Below, in pieces: positions 3,738 through 37,842 of a stretch of 41,751 bases of DNA (its first letter is position 1; every line of letters starts with the position of its first letter). The stretch is from positions 1-41,751 of the forward strand of contig ML002324.1 in the NCBI GenBank assembly GCA_003614675.1, read 5' to 3'. Made by a program: the position numbers and the translations under genes. Under the pieces are notes generated by a model. That model made no database searches. It was not told the origin of the DNA and saw only the letters and a program-made list of their open reading frames with translations. The DNA comes from Dimargaris cristalligena (lineage: Eukaryota).

Positions 3738-6700
3738 CCGCTCTTCAATAATTTTCTTTTATTATCTATCAAACCATCAATATTATTGCTTCCTAGGTCC
3801 TCCACGACCTTTCCGATAGCGATCCCCGTCGTACTGCCATACCGGAACTTACTATTAAAGAAACTTCCGATACCTCAACTGAATCGATGCAGTACTCCAC
3901 CGTCAAGACATCTATTGCCGACGCCATGGCGAATATCACCGGGGGCGAGGGAGGCACGAACGCCGGCCTCAGTGACTCGGAGAGCTCTGGTGGCCGCAAG
4001 GATTTGATGGATGACCAGTCGTCCTCCGGCTCCACCCACAGTTCGCCGGTCCTTGTGACTGGCTCAGTGACTCCAGCGACTCAACTTATTCGTGCTTCAA
4101 CCTTCTCCTCCCCCCAATTACCCTCAGCCCGAACGTTCAGGTCTTCTCGTTCATCGCCGCGCCCGACCTTCTCGTCTATATCCCTGCCCATAACCTCAGT
4201 GACTACCGCCACTTTAACGGACTCGTTTGACCAAAAACGAGCTCACTCGGTGAGTGCCTCCGTCGTGACAAGCTCGACCCATTGGGAGCTGCAGTCCGAT
4301 TTTACTGGGCATTCCGAGGCACATGTCAATGAGATGGACCGCATGGTACCCGCTCCAGGTTCAACCTCGATGGACAGCAAAATGGACCGGCCAAGCCTCC
4401 CGGCGTTTTACGGAAGCCAACCCTTCTCCGGAAACCCCACCACCATTCTTCCGGTTAGTTCGGTTATTAACACCACCGAAATTACCGAAGTGAATGTCAC
4501 TGCTTCTCGCCCTGTTGGCCCTGCCTTCGGTTTCAGCGAATCAGTTGGTTTCAATGTCTCTGCGTCACTCCCGGTGACTAACACCACCGAAGTAACCGAA
4601 ATAAATATCACTGCACCAGCCCTGGTGAGCCCCACCGTCGGCTTCAGTGAATCCATCGGAATCAATATCAACTCCTCCGATTTCATTCATTCACACACCA
4701 ATAAAACTGAAGCCGCCGAAGCGAATATCTCAACCTCGCATTCAACCGACTCGGCCATTAGCACCAAGGCCCCGGTATCCTTCTCGGTTAGTCCGATCAC
4801 CGACCTTACCGATACCGTTGGGGTAAATATATCGGTCCCCTTCCCGGTCAGTTCCGCTATTGGCTTCTTGGAAACCCTGGCGAGCAATGTAGTTAACCGT
4901 TTCCCGGGTACTTCAAGCTCTAAGTCAACCGTGGAGAGTGAGACGAGCGAGGCAAATCTCGTTACCACCCATAGCTACGCCTCGGTTGTGAGTAACCAGA
5001 CTGGCCAAGCCGAAGTGTATATCCCTACTGTCGTGCGGGTCAGTGAATCGGCGATCACCCACACTGGCCAAACCGTTACGGACTCGATCATTCCTGTGAG
5101 CCTTGATGCGGCCATTGGATTCGGCGAAGCTGTCAAAACAAATATGAGCACTCTCGCCCAAGTCGGTGGCGCAATCATTGCCGAAACTGGCGCCGCCTAT
5201 ATTAGTGCTGCGACCCCCTATTTAGTTGACCAGTCTACTAGCAATATGCAGGCATCGCAAATTACCGTTGATGTCCCCTATCCCATTGGATCGATTGCCA
5301 GCATCGGTGGGGCCACAGACATGCATACTTCTACATCCTCGCATGTCAGGGATTCTTTCACTAGCCAAATCGAGGCTACTAATACCAATACCATGGCTTC
5401 GTATTCCACTAGCGCAATTGCAAGCGTTTCACAAGCATCGGAGGTCAGCGTCGATGCTCCCTATCAAATTGGCACTATTATCGATATTAGCGGGGCCACG
5501 GACATGCACACTTCTACGTCCTCTCATTTCAGGGACTCGGTCACTAGCCAAACCGGGATTACCAATATCAACATCACGGCACCGCATTCCACTTCCCATA
5601 CCATTAGCGAAACGCACGTGTCCGAGAATTATATCTCGGCTCCCTATCGAATCGGCACGCTTATCGGCGTCGGCGGATCCACTGATATGAAATACACTTC
5701 AGCATCGCGAGTCGGTGGTTCCCTTGTTACCGAGACCAATATTTCTAGTGACAATTCCACAGTCCCGTTTTCCACTCATCAGATTACAGGCGAAACACAG
5801 GGGTCTGAAATTAACGTCACAGCCCCCTATCGAATCGGTACAGTTGTTAACGTCGGCGGTGCCGCAGTTGTGGATACACATATGACTTCGCATATCAGGG
5901 ACTCGACCACTAGTCATACCGAAGAAGATGGCATCCACATTACCGCCCCGCACTCCACTATCCATTTTACAAATGATACACGCGTGTCAGAAACTGGCGT
6001 TGATATCCCCTATCGAATTGGCACAGTTATTGGTGTTGGTGGAGCTACGGACATGTACACTTCTACGATCTTGCATGCTACGGATTCGGTCACTAGCGAA
6101 ACCAAAATTATCAACATCAATCCCATGTCACCGCATTCCACCAGCCGGGTCACTAGCGAAACGCAAATAGCCGAAATTAATGACACGGCCCCCTATCGAG
6201 CTGGCGCGGTTGTCAGAGTCGGCGGCTCTACAGATATAAGTTACGCTTCATCCTCACACGCCAGCGGGTCGGTTATTCCGGACACCAATACTTCTGGAGT
6301 CAATATCACGGCCCCCCATCGAATTGGTACGGTGTTCAGTACTGGCGGTGCCACGGACATGCACACTTTGACGTCCTCTCATGCCAGGGACTCGATCACT
6401 AACCAAATCCAGAATACCAATCTCAATATTACGGCACCATACACTATTGGTCAGGCCACCGATGATACAAGGGTTTCGACAATCAGTGTCGATGTTCCCT
6501 ATCGGATCGGTACGGTTGTCGGCATCGGTGGAGCCAAGGAAATGGGTTACTCTTCAACTTCGTATATCAGCGGATCGGCTATTACCGAAACTGGTATTTC
6601 TGGTATTAATATCACGAGTCCGTATTCCCCCGGCCAGTCTGCCAGCGATTCCCGGATTTCGACAATCAGTGTTGATGGGCCCTATCGAGTTGGCACAGTT

Positions 6701-9700
6701 ACCGGAATAGGCGCTGCGAAAGACATGGGGTATATCTCGGCCTCGCATGCCACAAACTCGACCACTAGCCAAACCGAAGTTACCCATAAAAATACAACAT
6801 CATCGTATTCCGCTGGTCATATCTCAAGCAATACGCAAGGGTTGGAGATTGATATCACAGCCCCGTATCGGATCGGCACGGTCGTCGGTATTGATGGATC
6901 GGCTATTGCCGAAACTGGGGTTGCTATTACCAATACCACTGCCTCGTATTCCACTGACCAGACCACCAGTAATGCACGAGTGTCCGGGATAGGCATCGAC
7001 ATTCCCTATCGAGTTGGCACAGTTGCCAGTATTAGTGGAGCGAAGGATATGGGGTATATTTCGGCCTCACATGTCAGCGGGTCGGCTATTACCGACACTA
7101 ATACTTCTGGAGTCAATATCACGACCCCCTATCGAATTGGTACGGTTGCAGGTGCTGGTGGTGTAACGCACATGGATGCCACTGCGCCCTCTCATATCAG
7201 CGGATCAGCTATTACCGAAACCGGGGTTGCTAGTGTCAATACCACAACCCCGTATTCCACCAGTCAAACCGCCAGCGATACCCTGGTGTCGGGGATCTGT
7301 ATTGAAGTGCCCTATCGAGTCGGCACAGTTACCGGGATTGGCGGAGCGAAAAACATAAGTTATATTTCATCCTCGCATACCAGCGGATCAGTTATTACCG
7401 AGGACGATATTCCTGGAAGCAATAGCACGACCCCCCATCGTATTGGTACAGTTATTGGCGTCGGCGGTACCGCGGGCATGGATCCCACTTCATCCTCGCA
7501 TGTCAGAGACTCGATCACCAGCCAAATCCAGAATACTGGTACCAATATTACGGCACCGTACTCCACCAGCCAGGCCCTTAACGAAAATCGCATATGGGGG
7601 GTTAGCATCGATGCCCCTTATCGGATCGGCACGGTTATTGGTGTTGGCGGAGTCACTTATACAGATACCAGTACATCTTCACATATCAGGGACTCGATTA
7701 CAGGCCAAACCACTGCCACCAGTATCAGTATCACGGCACCGTACTCCTCCAGTCAGATAGCCAGCGAAACACATGTGTCAGAAATTAATTTTGATGCACC
7801 CTATCGAATTGGCACGGTCACCGGTATTGGCGGGACCACGTACACAGATACTAGTATGTCTTCACATATCAAGGACTCGATTACAGGCCAAACCGAGATT
7901 ATCAATGTTGATATCACAGCTCCGTATTCTATTGGCACGGATACCAGCGGTACATGGGTGCCGGGTATTGGTGTCGCTACCCCCAATCGGGCCGAATCAT
8001 CTTTGAGTCAAACTGACATCACTTTGGTCAGCTCTTCGGTTTCCACGACTGGTGGCCCGGCCTTTAGCATTGGTGGCAGTGCTGAGCTGAATATGGGCAC
8101 CTCCCGACCCTTAGGCCCGACCACTAGTCAGGCTGAAATTACTTCGGTAGCCGTATTGTCACCCACACCCTGTGGCCTGAGAATCCACGGTTACGGAAAT
8201 TCAGGAGCACACGTAAAGGATTCCCGCCCAGTAGGGTCGGTCAGCGGTCAAACCGAAACTATATCGGTGACTACCCATGGTCCTAAGCCCTGCGGTCCAG
8301 GCATCATTATCGGAGGCGACGTGAGATTTGATGTCGGATCTACTCACACGACGAGTTCCGTCGCTGACCAAACAGATATTACATATTTCAGTAGTTCGAC
8401 TCCCAAGCCCTGCGGTTCGGGTGTCATCATCGGAGGCGATATCAGATTCGGGACGGGAATTTCTCACTCCACGGGCTCCATTACAAACCAAACAGGTATC
8501 ATATCTGTGGGCGTTTCGACTTCTAAGCCCTGCGGCCTAGATCCCATTGTCGGGGACGATGTAAAATTCGGGGTTGGACATGCCCACTCGACGGGCTCCA
8601 TTATCAGTAAGACAGATACCATATCTATGGATATTTCAACCCCTGGGCCTGGAGGTTTTGGCGTTAGTGTCCATAGCAACGCTGGATTGAATAGTGACGG
8701 TCGTTACAATACAGGTTACGTACCCGGACCGACCAAAATCACCGTGGTTGATGCCTCACACCCCAAACCTACTCTCCCGCCTCGCCACTTCGGCGGATAC
8801 TCCGAAACCGAGTTGGACAACACCCACACGGTCGGGTTTATCACGAGCCATGGTGGAATTACGACGGCTACTGCTCCAAAATTCACTCCGTATAACCCAG
8901 GCCAGAGTGTATATGGCAGTGTAGGTGTAAATCCTGGCAGTTCGTATACCACGAGTTCAACCTTCTCCCAAACCGAGATTACGTCAATTAGCGCTGTGGC
9001 ACCAAGCCCATGTGGCCCGGATATTGCTGTTGCCGGAAACGCCGGTGCGAGTCTTGGTAATTCCCACGCTGCGGGATCCGTCACTAGCCAGACCAAGACT
9101 ACTTTAGTAGATAGCTTAAATTCCAAGCCTTGTGATCCAAAATTTGGCATTGGCGGCAGTGTGGATATTAATATTGGCAATACTAATTCGTCGAGTTCCG
9201 TTGTCAACCAGACAAGGACCACTTCGACGCACATTTCGACACCCAAGCATTGTGGACCGGGTTATAGTGCCGGCGGGGGTACGGGGCTGGATACTGGAAG
9301 TCCTCGTCCAGCTGGTATCATTGTTGGCCAAACCGAAATCACAACAATCAGTACGTCACCCTCCAAGCCGTGTGGCCCGAGTGTCGGTGCTGGTGCCCAC
9401 ATTGGATTGACCGGCAACGTTACTTACCCCAAGAGTTTGATCACTGGGCAGACCACCACTACTTCGGCCAATATCTCAACACCTCAAACCTGTGGGCCAC
9501 CTCGCCAATCTAGTGGGTACTTTTATTCGGGGACTGGAAAGCAGATTTCAATGGACTCGTCCGTAACGCAAACCGAGATTACTACGGTGAATATTGCTAC
9601 ACCCAAACCCAGTGGCCCAGGTTTTAATGCCAGCGGAAGTATCGGACTGAATACCGGGGGCACTCACAAAGCTGGATCCACCGCCACCCAAACCAAAATC

Positions 9701-12700
9701 AATACCGTTGGGGTCTCTAATCCCATATCTAGTCAGCCAGGAATTATTGGTGTTGGTGGTGGTAGCGGAGTAAACGTGGGTAGTCCTCACCCTACCCATT
9801 CGACGGTCAGCGAGGTTGGTATTACATTAATAGAAGCAACTGTGCCCATGCCATGCGGCCCGAAAACCAACGCAAGTGGACACATGCCCAGGGTTAGTTC
9901 TACCACACACTCCAATCGCCCGGCTATCCCTCACACCGACATGAGTACTGTGAGTGCTACTAACCCGGTACCTGGTGGTTTTGCCCTCGGTATTAGTGGA
10001 AATGCTGGCTTTAATTCCGGTAACTCCCATGCCGCTAACTCGGTTGGAAATCAGACGAGTTATTTTGATATTGGGGCCACCACTCCTATGCCCTGTGGAT
10101 CTAGTACGGGCTATAGTGGAAATGGTGGTGGAATAGTCGGGAACTCCCACCATACCCATTCGACCACAATTCAATATGGATTGGATACCATGGATATGCC
10201 TGCTCCCATGCCGTACAACTCAAGCCATGGAGTCGTCGCTCACATCCCTTTGGATGACAGTAACCTTCCCCCCGCTGGCACTGGCACTGGCGCCAGCCAA
10301 GCCGGCCAGATAGGGACTGGTACATCCGGTACTATACATGGTGGTCAAAATATTGGGTTCGGCAGTCATACAGAGCTGTATGGCAGAGCTCCACACCCTA
10401 ATGCACCAAACGCCGGTCCAAGCAGGTTGCCTCAAGGGAATTATACTCCGACCCATATGACAGCTGGCCCGAAGGTTGGCTTTGTCGAATACAGCGACGG
10501 GTACGTGCCTATGCCGACCCCTAGTCACCCCAATATCGGATTCAACGCCAATGTTAGCGGCGAAAGTACTACATCTCGGCCAGATACCCAAGATGCTAGT
10601 TATTCTGGCCATGTCAACACTACTATTTCGGCTAATATGCCCTGTGGTCCATCCATTGGATTTTCCGGGCAAACCAGTACAACCTCCAGTGTTTCGTATC
10701 CTCCCCTCATTACCGCCGGCCAACCTGGGCCTGCTGGCGTGCAAGTGTCGATGCCCATGCCCAAGACTGGCGAGTCGACTATCTACATCGATGGCCACAT
10801 TGAATCGAGCAGTGGCGGCTTCCACCCTGGTCGCACGGTTATCGGCCAAGCCGGTATCCCTACGTCTGATGTTCTCGGCCCCACCCCCTATAGTCAGACC
10901 ATCGGGTTCAGCGGGCAAGTCACCACATGCGACAGCACTTTGCGACCCATTTATCCGACCTCTGGCGTATCCGGTACCACCGGGGTGAACATATCTGCCA
11001 CCACTCCCTGTGGCCCATCCACCGGTTTCAACCAAACCTCGGGAATGAATAGCTGGACTTCTCATACTGTAGGCTCCTCTGTTAATCAGATTGAAGTCGC
11101 TGGTGTGAACGTTTCAAGTATGTCTAGTGGCTCCACCACCCTTGGCTTTAGCAGTCACACTGGTATGAATACCACTACACCACGCCCTGCTCACCCAACC
11201 TTAAACCGAGTCCCTCATTCCGAATATATTCCGGCCTTCCCTATCCTCTCGGGCCAGAACCTCGGTCTTGGTGGACAATGGGATATAAATGTTACGACAC
11301 CTCGCCCACCCCACCTCGCCGTTAGCCAAACGCACATTCCCGACCCGAGAGGGCCTATGCCTAGCTCAGGTGGAACAAACATTAATCTCAGCGGTTACGC
11401 CGGGGCGAGTACCGGGGGCCACCATTCCGTACAACCGATGGTCTCCCAGACTGAGATTACTACCGTGAACATTTCGACACCAAGCCCACATGGACTCATC
11501 CGCCAAGACAAGACCCGCATCAATGTGAGTGGTGGCACCCCCCACCCCACTGTCTATCAAACCAACACCTCTGGTATCAACGTAGGCGCGACTATGCCCA
11601 GTGGTCCTGGTCCAAACTGGAGTGGCCAGACCAATACAACCATTGGGGGAACTCATACCGTTCAACCAGCTTTTAGCCAGGCCGGAGCTTCCACGTTGAA
11701 TATCCCAGTCCCAGTCCCCGTACCGCAGGGCCCGGGCTTCACCCACAGCGGAAGCATCGAGATTAGAGATAACACTTCCCAGGCAAGCGTCAATTTAGCT
11801 ACGCCTATACCATACGGCCCTAACCACGGTTCTGGCGGACATGTTGGAGTAAGTGGCAGTGTACCTCTTCCCGGTTCCATATATACCAACCAGACCAACT
11901 CTACGACCGTTAACGTGACTACCCCCCAGGCATGTGGCTCGAGTACGGGACTCGGTGGACATTCAGGGGTGAGTGTTGGAGCTACTCGACCTGGGCATCC
12001 AACCACTGTTCACACTGATATTACATTAGTTAGCGGGACGACTCCTACATCAAATGGCCCGACCGTTAGTATCAGTGGTTCTTCTGGAGCAACTGGCCAT
12101 ATTCCACCCCATGGCGGACCCGCCATCGTACCACCGGGGTATATAGCCGTGGCAGCGCCTTCAAATACCCCATGTGGTCCGCCTCGCGACTTCGGTAATC
12201 ACGGTGGCATGACCGGGACAGTTCCCCAACCTGGTAACCCAGTTACGTATCAAAATACCCATGGTAGTGGTGGTGGCCCTATCCCCGGCCCCTATGGGCC
12301 AGTCCATGGCCCCAACGGACATTTTGGCGCAAGTGGCAATGTTCCACATCCCAACCATCCAAATACCCACCATACGGACATTTCAGGCGTGCATATCATC
12401 AACACCACATCCAGCGGCTCGGGTGGTAACTTTGCTGGTCATGCCGGAGTGAACGCGACTACCGTCGGACCTGGTCGACCTGCTCCCAGCCATTCCCTTA
12501 ATGTTGGAGCTAATTGGCCCAACCCTATGGCTCCCGGTTTTAACGGACAAGCTGGCGTGGGTGTCGGGGGATCCCACCAGCAATTCCACTCAACAGCCAA
12601 TCAGGCTGGAGTGCCGGGTATCAGTATGGGTGCCCCTATGCCCCATGGTCCACCTTTCAGCCACGGTGGAGACGCTGGGGTAAATATATCTGCACCAGGT

Positions 12701-13060
12701 CTCCCTCCCCAATATTTTTCCACGACCGTAGAAGCTAGTATGGCGTCTGAGGCGGAACATACCATAGAGCTACTACAGACCCAGATGATGGCGCTCAACG
12801 AGCGAATTGAAATGCTCCGACACGATGCCCACGAGCGAAACAACCGGATCGTACGTCGTATATCCACTTTACGGGTCATTTTGAAAGCCAACTTCAGCCG
12901 CTTTGTGGTTGGCATGATTATACTGGCGCTTGTCATACTATTCCCGTACTGGCGGCGAAAGCGTTGGGTCAACCTGTCGCTGGGTAAGATTCGGGGATTT
13001 ATACCGTTCCTGCTCAACTATTTCATGGGTAAGTTCCTAGACACAGTCGTGTTTTTTTAA
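2688..13060 (+). CDS. Giant ACBP-domain tail-anchored protein (Atg37/ACBD5-like architecture), long isoform join(2688..2960,3797..13060), about 3,178 aa
   Basis: Exon 1 encodes an ACBP domain (KLHLYALFKQATEGDC...KPAFFYAVARTRWEAWNGLRGQTKEQAQVRYI) and ends GAG|GTAAGC in phase 0. The acceptor CCTAG at 3792-3796 opens in phase 0 into the frame of the 3887..13060 ORF (VLHDLSDSDPRRT...ESMQYST). The C-terminus has a coiled-coil-like segment (EHTIELLQTQMMALNERIEMLR), a hydrophobic helix (FVVGMIILALVILFPY) and a basic cluster (WRRKR). Confidence 0.75.
4445..12700 (+). repeat. Coding tandem-repeat array, roughly 60 degenerate units of 40, 41 or 61 aa, rich in Ser/Thr/Gly/Pro/Ile
   Basis: PYRIG-type anchors at 5276, 5459, 5642, 5825, 6008, 6191, 6314, 6497, 6680, 6863, 7004, 7127, 7310, 7433, 7616, 7799, 7922 (spacings 183 or 123 nt, one of 141). 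A PCG-type anchor position (motif degenerate in some units) recurs at an exact 120-nt period from 8168 to 9728 and continues with small indels to about 12650. Confidence 0.92.
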
Positions 13061-16068: not shown

Positions 16069-17090
16069 TTAGTAAGGAGCGTATCCACCACGACGGCCCC
16101 TGTGTGAAAAAAATATAATCAGGCAATGCGCAAAATCGACCAAATGGAATTATACATTAGCAAAATAGATCTCGCCCATGTTGTTGTAATACATACACAT
16201 TGTATAGATATAGATATAGATATATACCGCTAAGCTGGGAGTACTGTCTCCACTGCAATTGACCTATACTTACCGGAAGAAGCTAGAGCGGCCCCGATAA
16301 CCGCCACGGAATGGCCGACGGCCACGCGAGAAACCTCGGCCACCGGGCCCATTGAACATCGGAATATTGGTCCGCTTGGGGGTGACCTTAATCTCGCGGT
16401 CGTGCAGTGCGGTGCCTTCGAGTTTCACGGCATTGTCGACACTTTCGGCCTCGGCGAATTCCACATAGGCAAATCCTTTGGGTTGTCCAGTGATCTTATT
16501 GCAAAGGATAGTCACCCGGTTGATGGTACCGCAGGGCTGGAAGAGCGCCTGGAGTTCCTCGGGCGTGGTGCTGTAATCCACGTTGCCCACGTAGACGGAC
16601 CGCGTGTCGATTTCCTCCTTTTGGGTGCTGACGGCCCCGGCGGCCGTGACGGCGGTGCCCTGGCTCAGCTCCCTCTCGGCCTCTTCCTGCAGCGTACGGA
16701 GCTTCGCGGCTTCCTGTTCCAACTCCAAAACGCGCTGCTTCATGGCTTCGATTTCCTGTACGGAGTAGAGAGTCCCATTCAAAAAGAAAACCGGAGGAAA
16801 GGTAGAACAAAAGAAGAAGAAGAAACAGTAAGTCAATGAAAATTGAGGGGGAATTTCTGTTAAGGATGGTGGTGAATACGGGGCTACCATGATGCTGGCA
16901 GTCGGAGTATAGGACTCAGGGAATGTGCGCGTGTCGGCCATTACTCTGCAATTCACTTGAAACTGCGGTCAGAGAATCGCATACATGGTGCCTTTGTGAG
17001 GGCCTGGGCTAATGCATGTGGGCGGACACTTACCGGATCGTCGACCATGAGGGTGGCAGGGTCGGGGGTGGTGATGCTTTGGTCGGTCAT
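16069..17090 (-). CDS. PAB2: Nuclear poly(A)-binding protein 2 (PABPN1/Pab2/Sgn1 family), complement join(17034..17090,16274..16755,16069..16099), 189 aa
   Basis: Coiled coil [35 protein letters not shown]...KGFAYVEF...[12 protein letters not shown] tail ending [10 protein letters not shown]. Two GTAAGT...CAG introns with consistent phases (0 and 2). Confidence 0.93.
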
Positions 17091-18095: not shown

Positions 18096-19301
<1,206 letters not shown>

Positions 19302-19979
19302 TTATATATATATAAACACCAAAACTAGATGATAGACCCGAAACAATAGAGATAGATGAGCATGTAAAACGAGACTCTGAGACAACAAACGGCTGCTTGA
19401 AGGCTTAGAGAGGGGTTCGCCTAATATCATCCACAGCACAGACGCGAAAATTGGAAACTTCCGTTAGAGTATTGGCTAGTGGTATTTAGGAACCTATTAT
19501 GGGGCTTGTATTTTAACCCCAGTTCAAGGGGAAGTAGCCTAAATTAACCACTTTAAGTTTACTCTCGCCTGGTGTCCGGGACAACGTGTCCCTGTTATAC
19601 TATCTTTATATATATATATAGTTGTAATAATTACTCATGAAGTAGACCCATAAGGCCCCGGGCATATGGGGTTAAGCAGGTGATCAGAGTCGTTTTAGGA
19701 TTACTGTGGACATAACAGTCAAGCCAAGGCTGGTTTTTTTTTCAATACTAAAGTATGGGGTTTGGCTTTACCAATGGACCATTCAGCCCATGCCGAGGGT
19801 CCTTTTTCACCTCCACCAAAACCCTTAGAGCTACTTGAAGCCACCAGTTACTCATTTCACTCAACCCTACTTTTACTATTCGTGCTCTCCGACTCATTGG
19901 CCCTCCCCCCACTCTTGCTAAAGGTGCCTCCTATTTTCGACTGCAACTCGACTGTTGAATTTTTTTTACTACACAAAGA

Positions 19980-25424: not shown

Positions 25425-28400
25425 ATGGCCGCCCAAGCCCCCAATCTCCAAGTCATTTCCGAGTGCTTCCAGCAAACCCTGCAGCCCGCTACTCGTAAAC
25501 AAGGTACGTCGATTCGGCGAGGTCTTCAGTGCCCCAGCCTCTCGGGTAGACCATTAAAGTTGGTTCGTACCAACCCCGCTCCCGCTCCCATTGCTCAGGG
25601 GTCTAGAGATTCTCAGATAAACTCAGACCCCGCATTCAAAGTCCGCTCCACCCTTGTGCTGCGCCAGCCGGGTAACATTGGCCCCTACTTGGAATAGGCT
25701 CTGCATTCCCCAGTTCATTATAGGTTTGGTCGCCCATGGAATACCAGTGTTTTAACGAGAAACACTCGCTAGTTAGTCCCAACCACTGCGTAGTCAATTT
25801 CCCGGCGGTCGACTAAACTCAATGCTCGGCTCATTCCATCCCTAACCATTATCTGCCCCTGTAACTACTTGTACTATTTACTGTTTTTGTTTTTTTTTGA
25901 CAATGAACAGCCGAGCAGTACCTGAACTCCGCCCAGAAGAGCCCGGGCTTCATTGTGTTGCTGCTCGAACTGGCCGGCACGGATACTGCCGATCCCTCCA
26001 CCCGGTTTGCCGCTTCATTGTACTTTAAGAATTTCGTGAAGAAGTACTGGGATTCGGTAAGTGTACACGCGCGCCCTAATTCTTCCGCCTTGCACCTTCG
26101 TCGAATCTCAATAATCACTGTCGACTGTTCCAAATCCACACTGTTTCATAATCGCACCGGTTATTCATTATTCATAAGCCATGCTATTTATTATATGCCT
26201 ACCTGTATTCTGCTTTGTTCGTTCCCAGGCCGAAAATGACGAAGTCTTGATCTCCGACGCTGACCGCTCGGCAGTCAAGGCCCAGATCGTGGACCTGATG
26301 ATCCGGCTGCCTACCAAGCTTCAACTGCAAGTGAGCGATGGGCTATCCATCATCGCCAAGAACGACTTCCCTGACCAATGGCCCAGTCTGATCCAGGTAT
26401 GTAATATATACTGTTTATCCCTTATCGGTTATGGGATAATATTACTCTATGCCAGTAGTTCGGAATCGGTCGGATTTGGCTGTAATTTTGATATATTGTA
26501 GTCCGATAGCCGGTTTGCCGTACCAATGGCATTCCCCGTAGTTATTTGCACACCACAGCAGTGCTATACTAATCCCATTCGCCACTCAAATTATATCTCT
26601 TTAACACCCGCCCTTCCCGCCTACCAGGATCTGAACAACAAACTTAATCCCCAGGACTACCACGTCAACAACGGCGTGCTCCAAACTGCCCACGCTATTT
26701 TCAAACGGTAGGTTGCTTTGCGATCAGTCAGCCTACTCACTAAGCATCGCTTCTCCTTTACGAGCCCAATTTTTCGTTCAATCTGTGACGATAATACCCA
26801 TTATGAATTAGCCTTATTTTGCTAACCTCTGCCCGCATCGCGTTATTATCCATGAACCCATCCCCCTCACTCTCATCAGGTGGCGCAAGGAGTTCCGCAC
26901 TAACGAGCTCTTTTCCGAAATCAAATTTGTTTTGGAGCAATTCACCGGCCCCTTCACCCAGATCTTCAAGGTAAGTCCACTGTCGGTCGCTATATACCCC
27001 CCCTTCCCATTTCCCCGTCAGTTAACCACATACTATACTTTATATTGACCCCATTGGTCCTTAACCCTCAATACCCACTCTATATCCTAATATAACCATA
27101 TAATTCCGTTAATTCCCCCTCCCAGACCACCGATGAGCTCATCGAGGCCCACCGCAACGACGCCGCTGCTCTTAAAACCCTATTGCCGACCATGCTACTC
27201 TTAACCAAAATCTACTACAGTCTCAATTGCCAGGACCTTCCCGAATATTTTGAGGACCACATGACCGAGTTCATGACCGTATTCCACAAGTACCTGCTGT
27301 ACACGAACCCCCTGGTTGACAACAATGACGACGATGAGGCCACTGACGTTGAGAAGATCAAAGCCAGCATCTGTGAGATCATCAGCCTCTATACTAACCG
27401 GGCCGAAGAGCCGTTTGCCCCGATCCTGCCCAAGTTCGTGGAAACCGTGTGGAACATGTTGACGCAACTGGGCCTACAGCCCAAGTACGATATTCTGGCC
27501 AGCAAGGCCATTGGCTTCCTCACCACTGTGGTGTACCAGCCCGGTAATCGGGAATTATTCGCTAACCAGGATACCATGAAGCTCATCTGTGAAAAGATCA
27601 TCCTGCCCAACATGACCCTGCGGGAGAACGACGAAGAACTGTTCGAGGATGAACCTTTGCAATACGTGGTGCACGATCTCGAGGCATCCGACGCTGATAC
27701 CCGTCGCCGCGCCGCCAGTGATCTGGTGCGGGCTTTCTTGCAGGTGTTCCCCACCGAAATCACCGCCATCGTATCTACCTACATTGACCACTACCTGGCG
27801 CGCTACAACCAAAACCCGGCGACCAACTGGAAGGATAAGGATGTGGCCCTATTTATGGTGATGGCAGTAGCGGCAGTGTCCGTAGTGGCTAGACACGGGG
27901 CCACCAAAGTGAACGATCAGATTGATGTGGTGGACTTTTTCAGCAAACACATTATGATGCACCTCCAGGAACTTCCCGGTCAAGGTCACCCTATTATCCA
28001 GGCCGATGCCATCAAGTATGTTTACATCTTCCGGAACCAGTTGACCAAGGAGCAGCACCAAGTTCTGCTCCCTCTTCTCTGCCACCTCCTCAGCCACCCC
28101 AGTCCCTGTGTGGCCACCTACGCGTCGATCTGTTTGGAACGTATCTTCTTCATCAAGCGCGACAAGCAGCCCCTCTTCAGCCCCGCGGACATTAAACCCC
28201 TCATTGAGCCCCTTTTCACCGTTCTCTTCAATTCCCTGGAGGCGGCCGGGTCCGCGGAGAAGATGTCGGAGCAGGAGTACACTATGAAACTGATCATGCG
28301 CGTTATTATTGTGGCCCGGGAGCAGATTGCCGTCGTGGGACCGGTGGTGCTGGCCAAGCTGGCCGCCATGGTCGGACTGGTAAGCAAAAACCCTAGCAAC

Positions 28401-29513
28401 CCCCAGTTCAACCACTACATGTTCGAGTCCATTGCGGTGTTGGCCCGCTTTACCGTGGCCGCCAACCCTGAGTCAGTGACCGCGTTCGAACAGACTCTAT
28501 TCCCGCCCTTCCAGTTCATCCTCCAAGCCGATGTGGCCGACTTCACACCGTATGTGTTCCAAATCCTGTCCCAGCTTCTGTCGGCCCATGCCGGCCAGGC
28601 ACTGCCGGACCCGTACAAGGCTCTCTTCCCCCCGCTGCTGTTGCCGGTCCTGTGGGAAAATAGCGGCAACGTCCCCGCATTGGTGCGCTTAATTAAGTCC
28701 TACCTGCAAGTGGGCCCTTCGTTCATCGCCCCCGACCACCTGTCCCCCGTCCTGGGTATCTTCCAGAAGCTGCTGGCGTCCAAAACGAATGACCGCTACG
28801 CCTTTGATTTGCTGAACACCCTGCTGTACTACGCCCCCATGGCCGCCCTCAAGCCCCAGTTGAATGCCGTGTTTCTACTTATGCTCAACCGACTCCAGAA
28901 TAGCAGCACGAGCAAATTCACGCGGGCGTTCATCTATTTCATCGCCTTCTTCATGTGCTTAGAGAAGCCCGGCGAATCCATGCCGGCTCTGTTTTTGAAC
29001 GTCACCGACGGGATTCAGCCCAAGATTTTCGCGGGTATTCTGCGCTCGATTGTCATTCCCAACCTCAAGAATCTGAACAATACCCACGAGCGTAAGGTGA
29101 CGACGGTCGGATTTATGCGTTTATTGACTACCCAACCCGCCGTGGTGTTCACCACGCCGTACCTCGAGGTCCTGCCCGACCTGCTGGTGGTTCTGGCCGA
29201 AAAACTCCATATCCAGGTGGCCGATGGCGGAGCCGCCGATTCGGCCGCTAACCAAACCCAAGATGGAGGCGACCCCAGTGGCACGACCGATAACTTGGAT
29301 TCGGTGGATCTGATTGACAGTGCAGCGTTCCAGACCAACTATTCCCGTCTGGCCACGATTTCCAAGGAACAGCTGGACCCTGCCCCTTATGTGACCGACT
29401 ACCGCGCGCAGCTCAAGGATAACTTGGTCGGGTTGGCCCAGTCCCAGCCGGTCCTGATGCGCACGGTAGTGGAACGTTTGTCACCCGAGGCCAAGGCTAT
29501 TTTGGGCGTGTGA
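25425..29513 (+). CDS. CSE1: Importin-alpha re-exporter / exportin-2, join(25425..25503,25911..26056,26229..26396,26628..26707,26880..26970,27126..29513), 983 aa
   Basis: IBN_N start (RKQAEQYL...RFAASLYFKNFVKKYW), DFPDQWPSL, KRWRKEFRTNELFSEIKFVL, SLNCQDLPEYFEDHM, DTRRRAASDLVR, KNPSNPQFNHYMFESI. GT-AG introns all in phase. Confidence 0.96.
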
Positions 29514-31866
29514 TCTAGGTAGTTGCGTATCTTGCCTGGTACCCCAGAATTCGCTTTTAGTTAGGGTGTTTCTCCAAAGTTGGGAAGAGGGGGGGGGTTG
29601 TCGTTATTTTCACCCTTTGGAACATTGTCTAAGCGTAATTTAGTCACTAATGTTAAACCGGTAGGGGAAAAATCAATTATCCGCATATCATTATTTTTTT
29701 GTTCAACCCCCCCCCCCGTATTACCTTCATGCCCTTTATGTTGTTAGGGTGACGTATTTTTTTTTAGGGATACTGCTTGGCCTTTCATTTACTATAGTTT
29801 GACCACAGAGTGCAGTCTGTGATGGACTCTTCGCGGATTATCGTACTCTTCCTTGCCCACCCGGTCCATACAGTATCTATCCCCCCACTTTCCTTACCAA
29901 CCCCATCGATTGAACCATATCCCACATTTACATTGCACTCGGGCTTTCGCCTATTCGCGTGACTGCTCCACCTTGCCGCCATTTCGCTGGTTCTTTATTT
30001 GAACTTACGTGGCTGGAAAGCACTATTTCTCATTATCCTATTTTATTAAAACCATTGACATACATTTACTCTTTTTTTTAAAAAAAAATATAATAATAAT
30101 CTAGTACACCGGCAGGATGAAATATTGCCCAGTTGGATGGCCGGGTCTATAATTGAATAGATTAAATTTGGTCCGCTGTAGTGACTCCGCCGCCTTTTCC
30201 TCCGTTTGAGCCTCGTCAAATATATGGTTTCAGAGGGTGTGGCATATTGATGAATTCGCTGCCCATTTGTTTTAATGATTTCATTAATTTGAAAAAACAT
30301 AACAAAACCAGGTAGACAATAGATTACGCTGGTGGAGCAGTACGGTATGCCTAAGCCCGGTGACTTTAGCAGAACCCCCATAGCCCCGCCCACCTCCTGG
30401 CCAAAACTAGAGTAAGGCCAGTTTGAACATGGGGGTGTGTTGGTAGGGCAAGTGTCGGAGAATAGATTAACCGGTAGAGCGAAAGGCCCAATCTAATCGG
30501 CAATCAGTGAACTCCCTTCCCGCTCTGTCGGACTTCTTTAAGACTTAAAAGGGTGGGTGGGATATAATCGTCACTAAAATAAATAAAACAAGGGGGGGCT
30601 ACTCAGTCAATTTAATCGTTGTCGGGAAAGTTAGGGGGCATTTCCACCGCTAGGAGTATTTGGGGGGAGGGATGATATTTCTATCCGCCCCCTCCCCTTT
30701 CTCTTCATCGTTCGAACGCCCCTCCTTCGCTTTAAAATCGGTCAGGGCGAATGTTAGGACACCACCATTGGGGGGTCATTTATGGCCCACTATACCGAAG
30801 GCACCATTATATAACCCATGCTCCTACAATAGTGGTCGATAACAACCCAGACCTATGGGTGCATTTATCATATAAAGCAGATAATGGACAGTGGTGCAAA
30901 TCCGATCAAGATTTGCATATGCGAGGCAAACCAAAGCCAATGGGGTGAACTCCTACTTAGCAACAAACGGGGACGAAGTAGGCTGACGAGTGGGGATACG
31001 GTTCATTCACGGGACGGGGTTGCTTTGGGGAACACCATTATTGATATCTCTTAGCCAGCGGGGTCAATGATATTGCATACCCATGAAGGCTAATGAAAAA
31101 ATGCCATTCATTTTCCCCTTTTTACCGCACTCATCACTCCTGCAAAATGCGAGCAATTCTATAGATGGACATTCCATTAATCCCTGCTTAGGTATTCTAT
31201 AATCTATGGGGAGTGTTTCTGTAATCCTATTTAGCCGTACTACTTTGGCGCCTCTATACCTCCAGCCATTAATTTCCCAAATCCCTCCTCCCGCCCCTTT
31301 TACTAAATGTCCTATTAATAGACATGCCCCCCCCCCCTTGTATCGGACAGATGGCCAGCTTAAAAGCATATTTCTTTGTCCAGCTTTACTAAAAGGCGGT
31401 GATCTTTCGCGGGGATTGGTGGGGTTGTGCAGAGTGAAAGGGGGGTGGGTGGGGGCAAAAAAAGAACGAGTCTTGCCAATCAACTAGGAGGAACAGCGAG
31501 TTCGTCGATCGCAAGGGTTCGCCAGTTTACTGGGACGTATCCATTACCTTGGGACGAGAGAAGGGGTGGGGAACTAGGCACAGATTGTGCAGTCCGTGGT
31601 GATTTAGCCGGCGTGCAGATTCACAGTAGATTCAATAAAATGTATCATTGTAGTGGGGGGCGAGCAGCAGGCGGTGGGAATGCGTTTGTTGTTAGTAATA
31701 TATAGCCCATTCATTGTTATCTTTATCGACGAACGGGAAGACTAAGAACCCCAGTTAGCCGATTATTTTTCTTTCACGAGCCTGCAGTCGAAAGCCCGCC
31801 TAAATTAATTATACTTGAGTCTTGGCGGTGGGTGCTGCTTCTCAAGCACCAGTACATCTTGGCCAT

Positions 31867-31892
31867 TATATATATATATATATATATATATA
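31867..31892. promoter_or_regulatory. (TA)n tract, candidate TATA element about 120 nt upstream of the small secreted peptide gene
   Basis: About 13 TA repeats followed by a C/A/T-rich leader up to the ATG at 32010 (context ACCATG). Regulatory role is inferred. Confidence 0.45.
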
Positions 31893-32009
31893 CCTGTAAG
31901 TCCGACAACCCCTAGTACCCATCATCAGCTCAATCTCATATATTTTCCATCTCCACTATAACTTCCCATTCCAGCATACTACACTCTTCCCCTGCTATAT
32001 TTACCTACC

Positions 32010-32264
32010 ATGAAGCTCATTGCCCCTTCTCATTCCGTCTTGATAACCGCGCTTGTCGTTGCTTTGGCCATGTCCTCGACCAACTTAGTCGTGGCATCAC
32101 CGGTCCCCTCAGTCTCCAGTGGCGCCATTCCGTCCCCAGAAACCTTCGCCGCACTCCATAAGCGGAGTATTTTAAGTGTGTTTAAAACTGGATTTAAAAT
32201 GGTTCGTGGTGCTTTGGGAATGGGCAGCAGCAGCAGCAGCAGCAGCAAAACTACAAATAAATAA
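32010..32264 (+). CDS. Small secreted prepropeptide, 84 aa: signal peptide, propeptide, KR site, cationic amphipathic mature peptide
   Basis: MK start, hydrophobic core VLITALVVALA, likely cleavage VVA|SPVP, propeptide ending LHKR, mature SILSVFKTGFKMVRGALGMGSSSSSSSKTTNK. Good start context, and AATAAA downstream at 32571. Confidence 0.8.
   Translation: MKLIAPSHSVLITALVVALAMSSTNLVVASPVPSVSSGAIPSPETFAALHKRSILSVFKTGFKMVRGALGMGSSSSSSSKTTNK
32224..32246 (+). repeat. (AGC)n coding microsatellite encoding poly-Ser in the peptide tail
   Basis: Seven consecutive AGC codons following GGC. Confidence 0.85.
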
Positions 32265-34014
32265 GTTGGCCGACTGCCGGGTTGGGTCAGCACCAAGGCC
32301 CTATCCACATTCGTTACGGTTTGTTCGCCTCCATCCCCACTAAGACTTCTTTACCTTGTCGTTATCGACATTTTTAGCATTAGTACACCCACTATCTATC
32401 CCACATTTACCAATAGCATCTCTGTTTAAGGCATGTTTTACATAAGAGTTTTCAATACAGGTGGGTATCTAATATACTGCCCATTCATCGCAGCGAAATT
32501 CATTCAATTATCAGTTGGGTACTCAATATGGTTGGCATATCTATCCCAATTTTTGTTTACACATTTTTCCAATAAATACATTTGTAGTTTAAATTTAACA
32601 TGTAGATACTGAAAATAAGCATAAATAGCTTTCTTGTTTAAGTAATCTGATCAAATGGAGTAGATGGTCATATCGACAGGGTGTAACATAGGTATTATGT
32701 AAATTGGAAGTGTTCGGCGTCGGAAGCTATTACTATCCAGTCGGAGTGGGATTTAAGTAGTCATATAGAAACCTGTGGTAGATTTTAGATGCAGTAGGGC
32801 ATGTTTTCTTGGCTATGTTGACGTTTCTTGGTTAGTTTTTGTTTAAAAAATGATGGGTAAATATCCCGGCTTTTGAAATATCCGTAAAATGGACACTCCG
32901 CCTGCCCATGAAAATTCGAAGTGTGGTTACCGGTAGAAGCTCCGGATTAGAAATATAAATAATGAAACACATCAGCGGTAAACTGCACAGTAAACCCACC
33001 CTAAGAGGAGTATAGGTGAAGCGAAACTCAATCTCGTGGTGTTGAAACGAAATACAAAGGAAAATACCCTTTAAACTAATTGCGCCCTGTCTTGCTAAAC
33101 GGAACATTCGGTATATAGCCAGGTAGAGGCCCACCCATATGCTACTGGACTTCCGAAATGGTCCATTAAAATTCTTGGCGTTAAATATATGAATAGACAA
33201 TAGAATTGGATTCTATATGTATAAAAGTCGAGTCGGGCTAAACTATAAGCGCCCAAATGTCTATTTTATGGGCACAAGAAGACTCTTTTCATATTATAGT
33301 CGAGTGTCTTGAATAGGCCGAATAGAACGTAAATAAGGCAACACTAACTTTACACCATATATACTCGTAAAACTCAAAGCGGCCAGAACTCCATGCGCTC
33401 AGTTTTTCTTCCTATTTATAAGGATATCGCCGTATTCCATGTATATATATAATTAAACTCTTATATTATGCAATAGAAATGGGGTTGAAAGCCCCAGTGA
33501 TTTTCCTTAGTCGGAAACCCGATTTCTTTATTATTTATAAAAGACAGTCAAGCGGGTGGTTGTTAATGCTGGCCTATGTATTCCGAGACTGTTACTTATG
33601 ATTACGATCAATTCCATACATTGTAAGATATATTTTCGTACAGTTGAGAGGCCATTCTCACAATAGGCACACCGGCTTCTAGTAAACCCGATCACGTGAT
33701 ATGTGAAGTATGGCTCACTGGCTCGGGGTTGCTTCGAGATCACGGCTCACTATTATTTTTTTTCGCATTTATTACTATAGGCATTGGCTCACCATGAAGA
33801 ATTTCACATTAAAAGAGATTCCCGTCGCACATTACCAAGTCGAAAACTTCTCGAAATTGGTGACCTTACCACCACAACAGTATTGCAACTGAGTTGGCTG
33901 TTCATACTCTATTTTTTTATACCTCATTTCTTGGAATTGACTAACCAGTAGGGCCTCCATTTCCGCATTTCACCCTTTTCTCACCGCACACGCCCATTCA
34001 GCCAATTGCCCACC

Positions 34015-37000
34015 ATGAGCGAGTCGATAAACCAGGACCTGCAACGGAACAAGTCGCAGTTGTTTGTTCGCAGCCTTCCATACGATGCCACTTCCGAGAT
34101 AAGTACCTTCCCGGGTTTAGCCCGACACTAATTTATGCGTTCCCGGCCCATAGAGGGCTGGGGCGTGTATGGTTTAATGAAAAATACCTGCTGGCTCAAT
34201 TCTCCTCTGCCCGCCCACCTCCAGCCTAAAACTCCCGTATTTACCTTGATATATATTATATGGTTGGTCTTTGATAACCCCTAATCCCCCGGACACCTCT
34301 GTTTTTTGATTGGCCGAATTACGAGCTGGAGGCCTTTTTTAACGAAATCGGTCCAACCAAATCCTGCTTCGTCGCCACCGATAGCACCAAGTTCGATGCC
34401 CAAGGCAACACCCTTAACAAAGGCTACGGCTTTGTCCAATTGTAAGATTATATGGGTCTACTGGTGGTCACCTTGTTTTATGAAATTTGAAGTTCGTCTG
34501 GCACTAGATTCATTTTTTCGGTATTGGACTTGATTCGATATTGTCAGTCACCCGGACTATCAGAAACTGACCCGATAAAAACTGCTGGCTATTGCTAACT
34601 ACTTTAACATATATATATATATATATGTATATATATAACTATTTTGTCTGAAACCATAGCGCCTTGCCTGAAGATGCCGAGAGAGCCATTACTGAGCTAC
34701 CCCAAAAGTTATTTAATAACAAGCGTAAGCTTAAGATTGAATTTGCCATTACCCGGTCCCGTAATGATAATCAGGACGAACACGCCCGATTGGTAAAGCA
34801 GTCAATTGAAGGTAAGTTTCTATAACATCCACAGTCGATCCCCCCCATTATTATTGCCTTCAGTTGCCAGTCCCTGGTTTCTATACATCAACCAAATGCA
34901 AAACAGTAGAAACAAGTATCATAGATTGGTCTTGGAAACGGTTGACTAATTCGGCCTGACGACTTGATAATTCCCTTTTTACTAATCCTAACCTTTAAGA
35001 TGGTCGTATGGCCAAGAAGGTACATTCTAACAAAGCCCGGAAGGAAACGTAAGTAAATCTCCAACCCTCCTTGCACCGACATCTTTCGCATACTAGTCTT
35101 GGTTGTGGCCTTGTAGATCATCATCTTGCTTCATTTATCAAACCATATCGAAATATCCCTTGAACACACCTATCCCTCCTTAGCGTTAACTCGGAACAGA
35201 AAAATTGGAAAACACCTACCCAAGTTATTATTGTGCGCGGTATACCCGCCGGGGTTACTAAAAAGGAAATCTTCAAGAAGGCCAAGAAGTTCGGTAAACC
35301 CCAAAATATTAAGTTCCCCTACGATCTACCTGCCGGTTCCACGACCGAGGCCTCCGACAAATCCGTGACGGGCCAATCAGGTAAATAAGCCGCCGTAGTT
35401 TTTCTCGTTTATGCCGAAACTTGCCACCTGATTTAATGTAAATTGATTGCCATTTGTCAACTCACGCTAATGTCATCCACACTTGGATTATACTGCGACT
35501 TTTACCCTGTATAATTTATTCATACACCCCCTATTGTCTATTCTCTCCTTACTTGTTTTTGTCATTTGTAGCCCTGATCTTCTATACCACCCTCCCCGAG
35601 GCCCGCAAAGCCCGCCATTCCCTGCACGACCACGTGTTCAAAGGGTCTAAGCTGGTCGCCGAATTCGCGCGGTATGCCAAAAAAGATGGGCGTGTTATTG
35701 TGCACAACCTCGCTTTCAACACCGCGGCTGACGACGTGCGCAAACATTTCAGTCCGTTCGGTATGGTGGTCGATGTGAACATCCTCCTGAACAAGGAGAA
35801 GGCCCGGTCCAACGGGGTTGCGTTTGTTCATATGGGTACGGTGGAAGAGGCCCAGTGGGCCATTGAAAAACTCAACGGATCTACCTTGCAGGGTCGCCTG
35901 ATTGCGGTCGACATGGTCGTTTCGAAAGAGGAACATGAGAAGCGCCAGTTAACGGAGCTAATGGACGACGATGATGATGATGATGACGATGACAATGCTG
36001 ATGCCGACGGTGACGACGTGGATGAGGCAGAAGCCGAGGCCGAGCAAGAGAGTGATAGCGAGGATGAAGCCACGCCATCGAAGAACAGCCCTGGCCAGGA
36101 AGGGTCCCAGAAAACCGAGGCTGCTTCCAAGGTCGTGGAATCCTCCGCTGAGCAGACGGACGCCGCCAAGAAGAAGCCCGTCACCTCGACTCGCCTCAAC
36201 AGTACCGTGTTCATTCGCAATTTATCCTACGAGGAAACGGAAGCCACCCTCCACGAACACTTCCTCCGATTCGGTCCCATCCGCCACGCCCTCATCACGC
36301 GGGACAAACTAACCAATAATTCGCTGGGAACGGGATTCGTCTGCTTCGAACACCCCGAAGTAGCCGAGCTGTGTGTCCAGCAGGCCGCCTTCGCCAACGG
36401 CCAGGCCAACACCCAAATGGCCGAGTTTTTCATCAAGCCCGGCCGATTACCCCCGGCCTATAAGAGTGTCTTGGAACCCGAGGTATCCCAGTCCTACCCG
36501 GACATCCAGAACTTCATGCTTCACGGCCGTTTGGTCACGGTGGACATTGCTGTGGACCGCAAGGAAGCCACCCGCCTGCGGGAGGCCAAGTCGAGCCGCC
36601 CCCATAATGACAAGCGGAACCTCTACTTGCTCCAGGAAGGCGCCCTGCCGGTTGACTCCCCCTTGGCCGCGGTGCTAGGGCCCGCTGAATTCGGTAAGCG
36701 CCAGGACTCGTACGCCAAACGTCGGGCGGATCTTACGAACAACCCCAACCTCATGATTTCGCGCACCCGTCTGGCCATCCGCAATGTCCCTGCTGAATGG
36801 GACGACGGTATGATCCGCCGCGCCGCGCTAACCGCCGTGGCGGAATTCAAAAAGGCCGTCGCCAAGGGCGACCAGGCCCCCCTTTCGCCGACGGAAAAAA
36901 GTGAAGGTGGGTGGGATCATCTGCCCCGCCTGAAACAGGCCATCATTAACCGCGAAACGATCCAGATTGACCCCAAAACGAACCTGGGCCGGTCGCGGCG

Positions 37001-37842
37001 GTCGGCGTTTGTGGAATTCGTCGACCATTCCCATGCATTGGCCGCCCTGCGGTACTTGAACAATAACCCCACCGTGTTCACCAAGACCCAGCGGCCCATC
37101 GTCGAGTTTGCCATTGATAAGAAGACCGTCATGTTGTTGCGGGAAAAACGTATCGAGCGGTCAACGGCGGCGATTCAGGCGAAGCAAGCCGACCAGAATC
37201 AGGGTCAGGGTCAGGGTCAGGGCCAGAAGCAGAACCGGAACTCGATCTCAAAGCCGGAGACTAAGCCCAGAATGGGTATGGATGGTCCCGGAAAGGCGGC
37301 CCAGGCCAAGCGCAAGGGTAACCACAAGAGTGATGACACCGAGTCCCCCCGGAAACGGCCGAATAATGGGGATGGCAAGCCAGGGGCTAACCGCAATGGA
37401 CGTCCGCAGCGCGATGCGAAACCCGAGCATAAGTCCCGGTCGGCCAAACCCGGCCAGGCAGGTGATAGACCCCAAGCCTCTAAACGCGAAACTAATCGGT
37501 CGGAGGTAAGTTCCGAAAACGGTTGCCTAATGGCGCTAAACCGATTTGACAGTGATAGTGGTGGTGGCTGTGGGGCTATATACGTGTTATTCGCATTTGG
37601 TCACAATAAGTTCGGCCCACAGCCAATTGCCTGTTCTTTGTAAGAGAACATGTGAAGGGGGATATCTGGCCAATAGTAACCCCGATCCCTCGTTTTCCAT
37701 GGCATTGCTATTAACATCACTGTTTATTTCTGATTGATTTACCAACCTATTTTAGAAGCCGAAACATACGTCCGAGAACAACTCATCCGACGCCTTCAAA
37801 GCTGCCAAGGATTTGATCAAGAATGCCCTCAAGAGCGCTTAA
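34015..37842 (+). CDS. NOP4: Nucleolar multi-RRM 60S biogenesis factor Nop4/RBM28, join(34015..34098,34323..34441,34660..34811,35000..35048,35184..35380,35572..37505,37756..37842), 873 aa
   Basis: RRM1 LFVRSLPYDATSE|ELEAFFNEIGPTKSCFV...NKGYGFVQFALPEDAERA; further RRMs; acidic tract; STVFIRNLSY; DKRNLYLLQEG; NPNLMISRTRLAIRNVP; AFVEFVDHSHALAALRYLNNNP...RPIVEFA. Exon phases are consistent. Intron 1 requires AT-AC termini. Confidence 0.92.
34099..34322 (+). other. Non-canonical AT-AC intron, 224 nt (NOP4 intron 1)
   Basis: GAG|ATAAGTAC ... CCCTAATC ... GTTTTTTGATTGGCCGAATTAC|GAG. No AG dinucleotide between the in-frame stop at 34275 and 34322. Confidence 0.75.

Follow-up and report, generated by a model that had tools for sequence, protein, structure and literature searches.

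We analysed a 41,751-nucleotide stretch of the genome of Dimargaris cristalligena (contig ML002324.1 of the NCBI GenBank assembly GCA_003614675.1, positions 1 to 41,751 of the forward strand), referred to below as the window, and we focus here on one open reading frame (ORF) of 84 codons, P0001, on its plus strand. D. cristalligena is described as an obligate mycoparasite in the accessible part of PMC6784888, and the Dimargaritales are obligate parasites of other fungi. The neighbours of the ORF in the window are housekeeping genes, CSE1 and an Mrd1-like gene, and the ORF lies mid-way in the spacer between them (29514-34015; 4.5 kb, 43% GC), a length roughly three times that of the next largest interval between genes as read in the window. 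A Dimargaris cristalligena protein matches the CSE1 ORF at 99% identity, the next relatives being those of Dimargaris verticillata (74%, partial), Dispira simplex (70%) and Tieghemiomyces parasiticus (69%). A first-pass annotation had singled out the 84-codon ORF as the candidate precursor of a membrane-active (antimicrobial or cytolytic) peptide released by kexin cleavage; the ORF itself is present exactly as claimed, on the plus strand from ATG to TAA, encoding 84 amino acids (aa). Its parts and surroundings are listed in Table 1.

The predicted product opens with a segment that resembles a signal peptide or a signal anchor. Its hydrophobic core (aa 10-21) has a mean Kyte-Doolittle hydropathy of 2.93 and is preceded by K2, the mean over aa 10-29 is 2.17, and the small residues at -3 and -1 in A18-L-A20 and V27-V-A29 make cleavage possible after A20 or after A29. 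The annotation had called aa 1-29 a signal peptide; the segment does pass a crude signal-peptide rule, and the helix predicted at 8-29 could also be a signal anchor. The landmarks downstream were found as described: the Pro/Ser-rich stretch carries the sole acidic residue of the product (E44), KR occupies aa 51-52, and the 32-aa tail that follows has five basic residues (K59, K63, R66, K80 and K84) and no Asp or Glu, for a net charge of +5. The 84-aa product contains no Cys and no N-glycosylation sequon.

Table 1. Coordinates of the 84-codon ORF, of its parts and of the features around it (positions are those of the window)
Feature	Position	Strand	Remarks
84-codon ORF (P0001)	32010-32264	+	ATG to TAA, single exon; stop TAA at 32262-32264
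Start codon in ACC-ATG context	32007-32012	+	sequence ahead of ATG is ...cctACC
N-terminus, signal-peptide-like or signal-anchor-like, aa 1-29	32010-32096	+	crude rule, Kyte-Doolittle, AlphaFold helix 8-29
Pro/Ser-rich stretch, aa 30-52	32097-32165	+	ends L-H-K-R; KR codons at 32160-32165
Proposed 32-aa cationic tail, aa 53-84	32166-32261	+	amphipathic part is tail residues 1-18
(AGC)7 microsatellite encoding Ser7	32226-32246	+	length unchanged in second strain (X5 record 27, 0 gaps)
AATAAA hexamer	32256-32261	+	at 3' end of ORF
G>T in run X5	32078	+	sole difference within ORF; synonymous, codon 23 TCG>TCT, Ser
Pyrimidine-rich (CT) tract	31933-32044	+	spans the 60-nt leader and extends 35 nt into ORF
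(TA)13 microsatellite	31866-31893		117-144 nt upstream of ATG
GTAAGT	31896-31901	+	sole plus-strand GTAA-type donor-like site within 31896-32699 (pattern GTAAR)
Antisense open frame, 106 codons stop to stop	32030-32350	-	third codon positions in common with ORF
CSE1 main ORF	27096-29513		upstream exons too; start ATG at 25425
Mrd1-like multi-RRM gene, main ORF	35442-37643		upstream exons; start ATG at 34015

Because it has no internal GTAA-type donor, we treat the ORF as a self-contained single-exon coding sequence. An intron inside it was considered and ruled out, the only internal donor-like site being a poor GTGTGT at 32176; the introns of the Mrd1-like neighbour begin GTAAGA, GTAAGT or GTAAAT. 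Upstream of the ATG, the GTAAGT at 31896, which comes right after the (TA)13 microsatellite, might open an intron in the 5' untranslated region (5'-UTR), with the AG at 31973-31974 as its end (placed by eye), a suggestion that is speculative. The (TA)13 tract itself could serve as a TATA-like element, but such (TA)n microsatellites recur in introns and spacers of the window (16198-16234, 19596-19627, 31866-31893, 34609-34640 and 38898-38921).

In codon composition the ORF consists of two unlike halves, and the switch between them, at about codons 49-52, falls at the KR site (gene-like GC content at third codon positions [GC3] reaches to about codon 48). The ordinary genes of the window have a GC3 of 0.66-0.74. 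Over codons 1-52, 34 of 52 third positions are G or C (0.65; binomial P 0.0009 versus the spacer GC of 0.43), and the frequencies of A, C, G and T at position 3 are.15,.42,.23 and.19, compared with.11,.42,.29 and.18 in the ordinary genes. The composition of position 1 is gene-like as well, with G enriched, purine/pyrimidine use varies with codon position (chi2 16.5, p 0.0003), and the log-likelihood ratio (LLR; trained on the ordinary genes) is +0.286. Codons 53-84 are AT-rich and non-coding-like: GC3 is 12/32 (0.38), or 5/25 when (AGC)7 is left out, and the LLR from the same training is -0.388. All four Lys codons of the tail are AAA and both Phe codons TTT, where the ordinary genes use 67% AAG and 67% TTC (Lys alone, P 0.012). 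A GC3 as low as that of the tail was reached in 3 of 171 32-codon windows of the ordinary genes, and in 17 of 191 such windows of a 3087-aa ORF elsewhere in the window.

In our reading, the locus is a young or decayed orphan gene for a small secreted protein and not an established peptide-toxin gene. The core claim of this reading, that the ATG at 32010 is the genuine, or recently genuine, start of a gene for a secretory-pathway product in a D. cristalligena-like genome, is one to which we give an even chance. The ATG would open an unannotated, lineage-restricted, single-exon ORF whose first approximately 50 codons would specify a signal peptide for the endoplasmic reticulum (ER), or a signal anchor, together with a short Pro/Ser-rich stretch. 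If the ORF is transcribed and translated, as we infer, the product would be targeted to the ER and enter the secretory pathway, where cleavage after L-H-K-R by a Golgi kexin is possible. The last 32 codons, those of the proposed peptide, are AT-rich, carry a microsatellite and show no sign of coding selection. There are two sub-cases, an intact functional 84-aa product and a young or decayed gene whose tail is read-through of DNA that was formerly non-coding, and we see roughly equal odds for them. We favour this reading because of the start context, the composition of codons 1-52, the mid-spacer location and the rarity of the layout, and also because the ORF is intact in a second strain (run X5) with a synonymous change, lacks an internal donor and has a language-model recognition value of 2358 versus a mark of 2300 (a mark reached by 9 of 100 shuffled sequences; the value does not show that the gene is real).

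An alternative that we rate as a serious prospect, somewhat short of even, is that the ATG arose by chance in a plus-strand pyrimidine-rich non-coding tract, and that nothing is made from it or that translation occurs at noise level only. T or C at codon position 2 gives hydrophobic residues, Ser, Pro, Thr and Ala, and such tracts lack stops, so that on paper they yield a signal-like start and a Pro/Ser-rich stretch; the frame would then run on through AT-rich spacer (the AAA and TTT codons) and (AGC)7 to the first stop. We count for this alternative the reported tendency of thymine-rich intergenic DNA to encode membrane-like segments (PMC7005711 and PMC10063215, each in the part accessible to us).

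Much of the composition weighs on the side of chance and against our reading. Within aa 1-52, 83% of second codon positions are pyrimidines, a CT tract spans the ATG, and four further plus-strand CT tracts in the spacer are not followed by a long ORF; the leader and the signal-like, Pro/Ser-rich start may be a single compositional feature, as the CT tract enters the ORF. Besides the non-coding-like codons of the tail, the score of the ORF as a whole (0.029, with ordinary-gene training) lies in the junk range: 17 of 74 junk ORFs score at least as high, and a score that low is found in only 3 of 60 true-gene windows. An earlier codon result that had placed the candidate first among 29 spacer ORFs was withdrawn, half of its training set having been the Ser/Pro/Thr/Ala-rich 3087-aa ORF. 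The idea that the GC-rich island marks an exon was likewise weakened by about three similar patches in the spacer that have no long ORF. GC3 is moreover blind to strand: the antisense frame has common third positions, and 30-codon windows score 0.44 on the antisense versus 0.44 for the ORF. Set against chance, however, are the gene-like enrichment of G at position 1 and the gene-like position-3 composition of aa 1-52, as well as the unusual length of the spacer.

The start context speaks for a gene. The starts of CSE1 (25425) and of the Mrd1-like gene (34015) are preceded by ...cctACC and ...cccACC, respectively; across the window only 31 of 1342 ATGs follow an ACC, and within the spacer 2 of 168 do. 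The 60-nt leader of the candidate is 0.73 pyrimidine; the corresponding values are 0.78 for CSE1, 0.73 for the Mrd1-like gene and 0.48 +/- 0.09 over all ATGs. When the two properties are combined (ACC and a pyrimidine fraction of at least 0.73), 3 of 1338 window ATGs are retained, namely the CSE1, Mrd1-like and candidate starts, so that apart from the candidate the combination occurs at two confident gene starts only, which argues against a chance ATG. The rule was framed post hoc, and this lowers its weight as evidence for a gene. ORF 2688, like CSE1 and the Mrd1-like gene, also has a pyrimidine tract ahead of its start. In addition, the 12 nt before the ATG are nearly the same in CSE1 and the Mrd1-like gene (caattSccYacc, 10 of 12 positions identical, by eye); this motif and the pyrimidine leader may together form a core-promoter or 5'-UTR signature that is typical of the species and could help in gene finding.

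We also estimated how often the prepro-peptide layout arises by chance. The length of the ORF is unremarkable (4 of the 14 ATG ORFs of at least 40 aa in 30000-34500 are longer, at 111, 101, 93 and 91 aa). Of the 113 ATG ORFs of at least 50 aa in the window, 5 satisfy the crude rule for a signal peptide, in 8 a dibasic site precedes a cationic amphipathic 18-mer, and 31 contain an 18-mer that is as amphipathic and cationic as that of the candidate or more so, but the signal-like start and the dibasic-plus-amphipathic layout occur together in just one, the candidate. Of the other four ORFs that pass the rule, one encodes an MFS transporter and three lie in a wrong frame; the first-pass statement that this is the only secreted-type gene here holds by the crude rule only. 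Simulation with second-order Markov chains produced the full layout in 0 of 150 windows under the window model and in 1 of 150 under the spacer model, which speaks against chance. The criteria for the layout were set after the candidate had been seen, and Markov chains miss local pyrimidine tracts, so this rarity is overstated; the scan as a whole covers very many windows, and rare chance layouts are therefore to be expected. The longer ORFs nearby, the frequency of amphipathic 18-mers and the number of windows scanned all agree with a chance ORF.

The searches for relatives count on the same side. A word-indexed search of 5.8 billion clusters gave no match to P0001 at E<=10, phmmer against 1.84 billion representatives gave none at E<=0.001, and of 595 pattern matches in metagenome contigs 0 were confirmed. 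P0001 matched no Pfam family, the protein atlas gave no lead for the whole of P0001 or for residues 53-84, and the PDB held no chain resembling the tail at E<=10. The first-pass annotation had suggested a search for paralogues with conserved signal and pro regions; tblastn within the window gave a best non-self E of 0.059 and disclosed no family with a conserved prepro region. The ORF is missing from protein collections that contain CSE1 and proteins of three other Dimargaritales, and since its own sequence is missing from collections that contain its neighbour, no public gene model includes it. The missing annotation counts against a gene, if weakly, as short orphans are easily overlooked without RNA. 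No RNA run appears among the 24 listed, a point on the negative side that is in itself no evidence on expression; the string 'transcriptom' does not occur in the text of the genome paper covering D. cristalligena.

Sequence from a second strain is available from run X5, which belongs to another study. A contig of this run covers 31903-34598 with five substitutions and 0 gaps and leaves the ORF intact, and the one substitution that falls in the ORF is synonymous (Table 1), a point against a chance ORF; over the whole comparison there are 15 substitutions in 12 kb, 1 of them in the ORF, which are too few for a selection test. The indels of the run (29588, 29706-29707, 29807 and 31326-31327) all lie in the spacer upstream of the ORF, none inside it; some of these positions vary, too, between the runs from which the DNA may derive. 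In the same part of the spacer, a stretch of 30-40 nt at 30061-30100 recurs, with 1-3 differences, in several further contigs of run X5 (records 22-26), which suggests a short dispersed repeat or low-complexity element, and the 100-nt bin 30014-30113 has 24% GC.

The membrane-active peptide that had originally been proposed is a sub-case of the favoured reading, and we consider it improbable. It would require an intact gene, cleavage by signal peptidase and then by Golgi kexin after K51-R52, and release of a 32-aa peptide whose first approximately 18 residues would fold into an amphipathic helix and make the membranes of the mucoralean host, of competitors or of bacteria permeable. The anatomy is in its favour. 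The layout was confirmed, L-H-K-R is followed by S, and Kex2 cuts after KR and RR (accessible text of PMC5784256). The hydrophobic spacing at i+3/i+4 that had been noted is real, and the moment calculation that had been called for gave an Eisenberg hydrophobic moment of 0.489 for tail residues 1-18, peaking at 100-110 degrees and reached by 1.2% of 20000 shuffles. AlphaFold, run on the single sequence, predicts helices at 8-29 and 43-69 with a mean predicted local distance difference test (pLDDT) score of 63 (68-81 as means of 10-residue blocks over residues 41-70), and an obligate mycoparasite would have a plausible use for a membrane-active secreted peptide.

Against the peptide stands first of all that it requires exactly the part of the ORF without a coding signature. 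The strongest amphipathic windows (0.65 starting from R52, 0.62 from K51) span the KR, and since both these windows and the predicted helix 43-69 run through it, KR would lie on the polar face of a helix and not in an exposed linker. Of the 32 tail residues, 14 make up a Gly/Ser-rich end (GMGSSSSSSSKTTN), which includes the microsatellite-encoded Ser7. The amphipathicity is matched by 31 of 113 ORFs, and the searches returned no paralogue family in the window, no PDB chain at E<=10 and no atlas lead. The original proposal thus fares unevenly: its anatomy and a gene-like 5' half stand, and the non-coding-like tail, the commonness of the amphipathicity and the helix through KR tell against its peptide.

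A further possibility, and a most unlikely one in our judgement, is that the stretch belongs to another gene model, either as an exon of a longer gene on one or the other strand or as a signal-anchored micro-membrane protein. The antisense strand is open for 106 codons with an equal 30-codon score and a GTAAGT lies just upstream at 31896, and the hydropathy of aa 10-29 (2.17) together with the 22-residue predicted helix would fit an anchor. Contrary to a longer gene, the plus strand contains no further coding-like 30-codon window in 32172-33972, the minus strand outside the locus contains one weak window (30662-30775), the antisense frame has no long ATG ORF, homologue or Pfam match, and no GTAA-type donor occurs within the ORF. 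A Pfam scan of 55 open frames of the spacer gave five weak matches, each under its curated cut-off, and tRNA and Rfam searches found none in the window.

Several observations concern the other genes of the window. The upstream exons of the Mrd1-like gene lie at approximately 34015-34098, 34326-34441, 34660-34811 and 35230-35380 (plus strand); if exon 1 joins exon 2 in frame, intron 1 starts with ATAAGT, not GTAAGT (by eye), which would imply a non-canonical donor, another exon boundary or an assembly error. The 3087-codon ORF is uninterrupted at 3797-13060 (plus strand) and has no Pfam match above cut-off (best NtrZ, 18.3 bits versus a cut-off of 27.7); its GC at codon positions 1, 2 and 3 is 0.50/0.57/0.51, unlike that of its neighbours, with their GC3 of 0.66-0.74, and it is probably a giant low-complexity protein. 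An ORF on the minus strand at 18096-19301 carries a zf-CCHC_3 zinc knuckle (1.6e-17) and overlaps the same-strand open frames 18191-18622 and 18623-19063; because of these overlapping frames and a GC content at position 2 of 0.68, we take it to encode a low-complexity, probably Arg/Ser/Gly-rich protein.

Taken as a whole, the observation that prompted this analysis is confirmed and its interpretation partly supported, which does not yet amount to a discovery. As it stands, the case mainly illustrates how a pyrimidine-rich tract can yield a convincing prepro-peptide on paper, and it indicates that start-codon context and split codon statistics partly sort such cases. If the ORF is expressed, the Dimargaritales, whose secretome is very poorly known, would gain an orphan small secreted protein, and the locus would be a clean example of a gene with an established-looking 5' half and a 3' half seemingly newly recruited from spacer DNA. 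If the peptide were real, kexin-released membrane-active peptides would have arisen outside Candida, as an independent origin of the candidalysin strategy, and the product would be an effector candidate for mycoparasitism. To our knowledge, no gene-encoded helical membrane-active peptide was previously known from an early-diverging fungus.

Of the known systems, Ece1 of Candida albicans, the precursor of candidalysin, offers a close likeness on paper, with a signal peptide (a putative one in the candidate) and a KR directly before a peptide of about 31-32 aa described as amphipathic. Candidalysin as printed starts with Ser-Ile after KR and ends with Asn-Lys, and Ece1, a polyprotein of 271 aa, contains seven KR sites, with the toxin KR-flanked on both sides (both from the accessible text of PMC5784256). 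The candidate tail also starts with Ser-Ile and ends with Asn-Lys, which we read as coincidence. Unlike Ece1, the candidate precursor is 84 aa long with a single KR, and the peptide released from it would end at the stop codon; the tail is far more polar and cationic than candidalysin and contains a Ser7 run, there is no sequence relation (no match at E<=10, or at E<=0.001 with phmmer), and the candidate comes from a zoopagomycete whereas Ece1 comes from a CTG-clade yeast. That the locus encodes an unrelated, candidalysin-like, Cys-free linear cationic toxin of an obligate haustorial zoopagomycete mycoparasite in a gene-poor, AT-rich spacer, aimed at the mucoralean host or at competing microbes, is a notion to which we assign little likelihood.

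The KEX2-processed repeat proteins (KEPs), which include precursors of alpha-factor-type pheromones, have a signal peptide and a dibasic kexin site before a short secreted peptide, a layout that the candidate, with its signal-like N-terminus, would resemble. In the part of PMC6339444 accessible to us they are defined by at least three repeated motifs between KR, RR or KK, and are reported in Zoopagomycota too; the candidate, in contrast, has a single KR and no repeat apart from Ser7. The ORF is not a member of the Ece1 or the KEP family. Alpha-type pheromone peptides, described in the same text, are 9-24 aa long, with X-Ala/X-Pro dipeptides for Ste13 after the KR; in the candidate KR is followed by S-I-L-S, without the Ste13 signature, and the tail has 32 aa.

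Judged from its sequence, the candidate would resemble linear cationic helical antimicrobial peptides of the magainin/dermaseptin type in its positive charge, its lack of Cys, its predicted amphipathic helix of about 18 residues and its putative dibasic release. Animal precursors of the magainin/dermaseptin type have a conserved signal, a strongly acidic pro region and paralogue families, whereas the candidate has one acidic residue, no paralogue in the window and no PDB match at E<=10. The features of this class (net charge +5, moment 0.489, predicted helix 43-69) are present in the candidate, but also in 31 of 113 ORFs in the window. The likeness to de novo ORFs, or proto-genes, from T-rich intergenic DNA (PMC7005711, in the part accessible to us) lies in the orphan status and shortness of the candidate, in its pyrimidine-encoded hydrophobic N-terminus, in the lack of annotation and in codons that are in part non-optimal. 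Unlike a raw intergenic ORF, the candidate has a start context and a first 52 codons that resemble those of the established genes of this genome.

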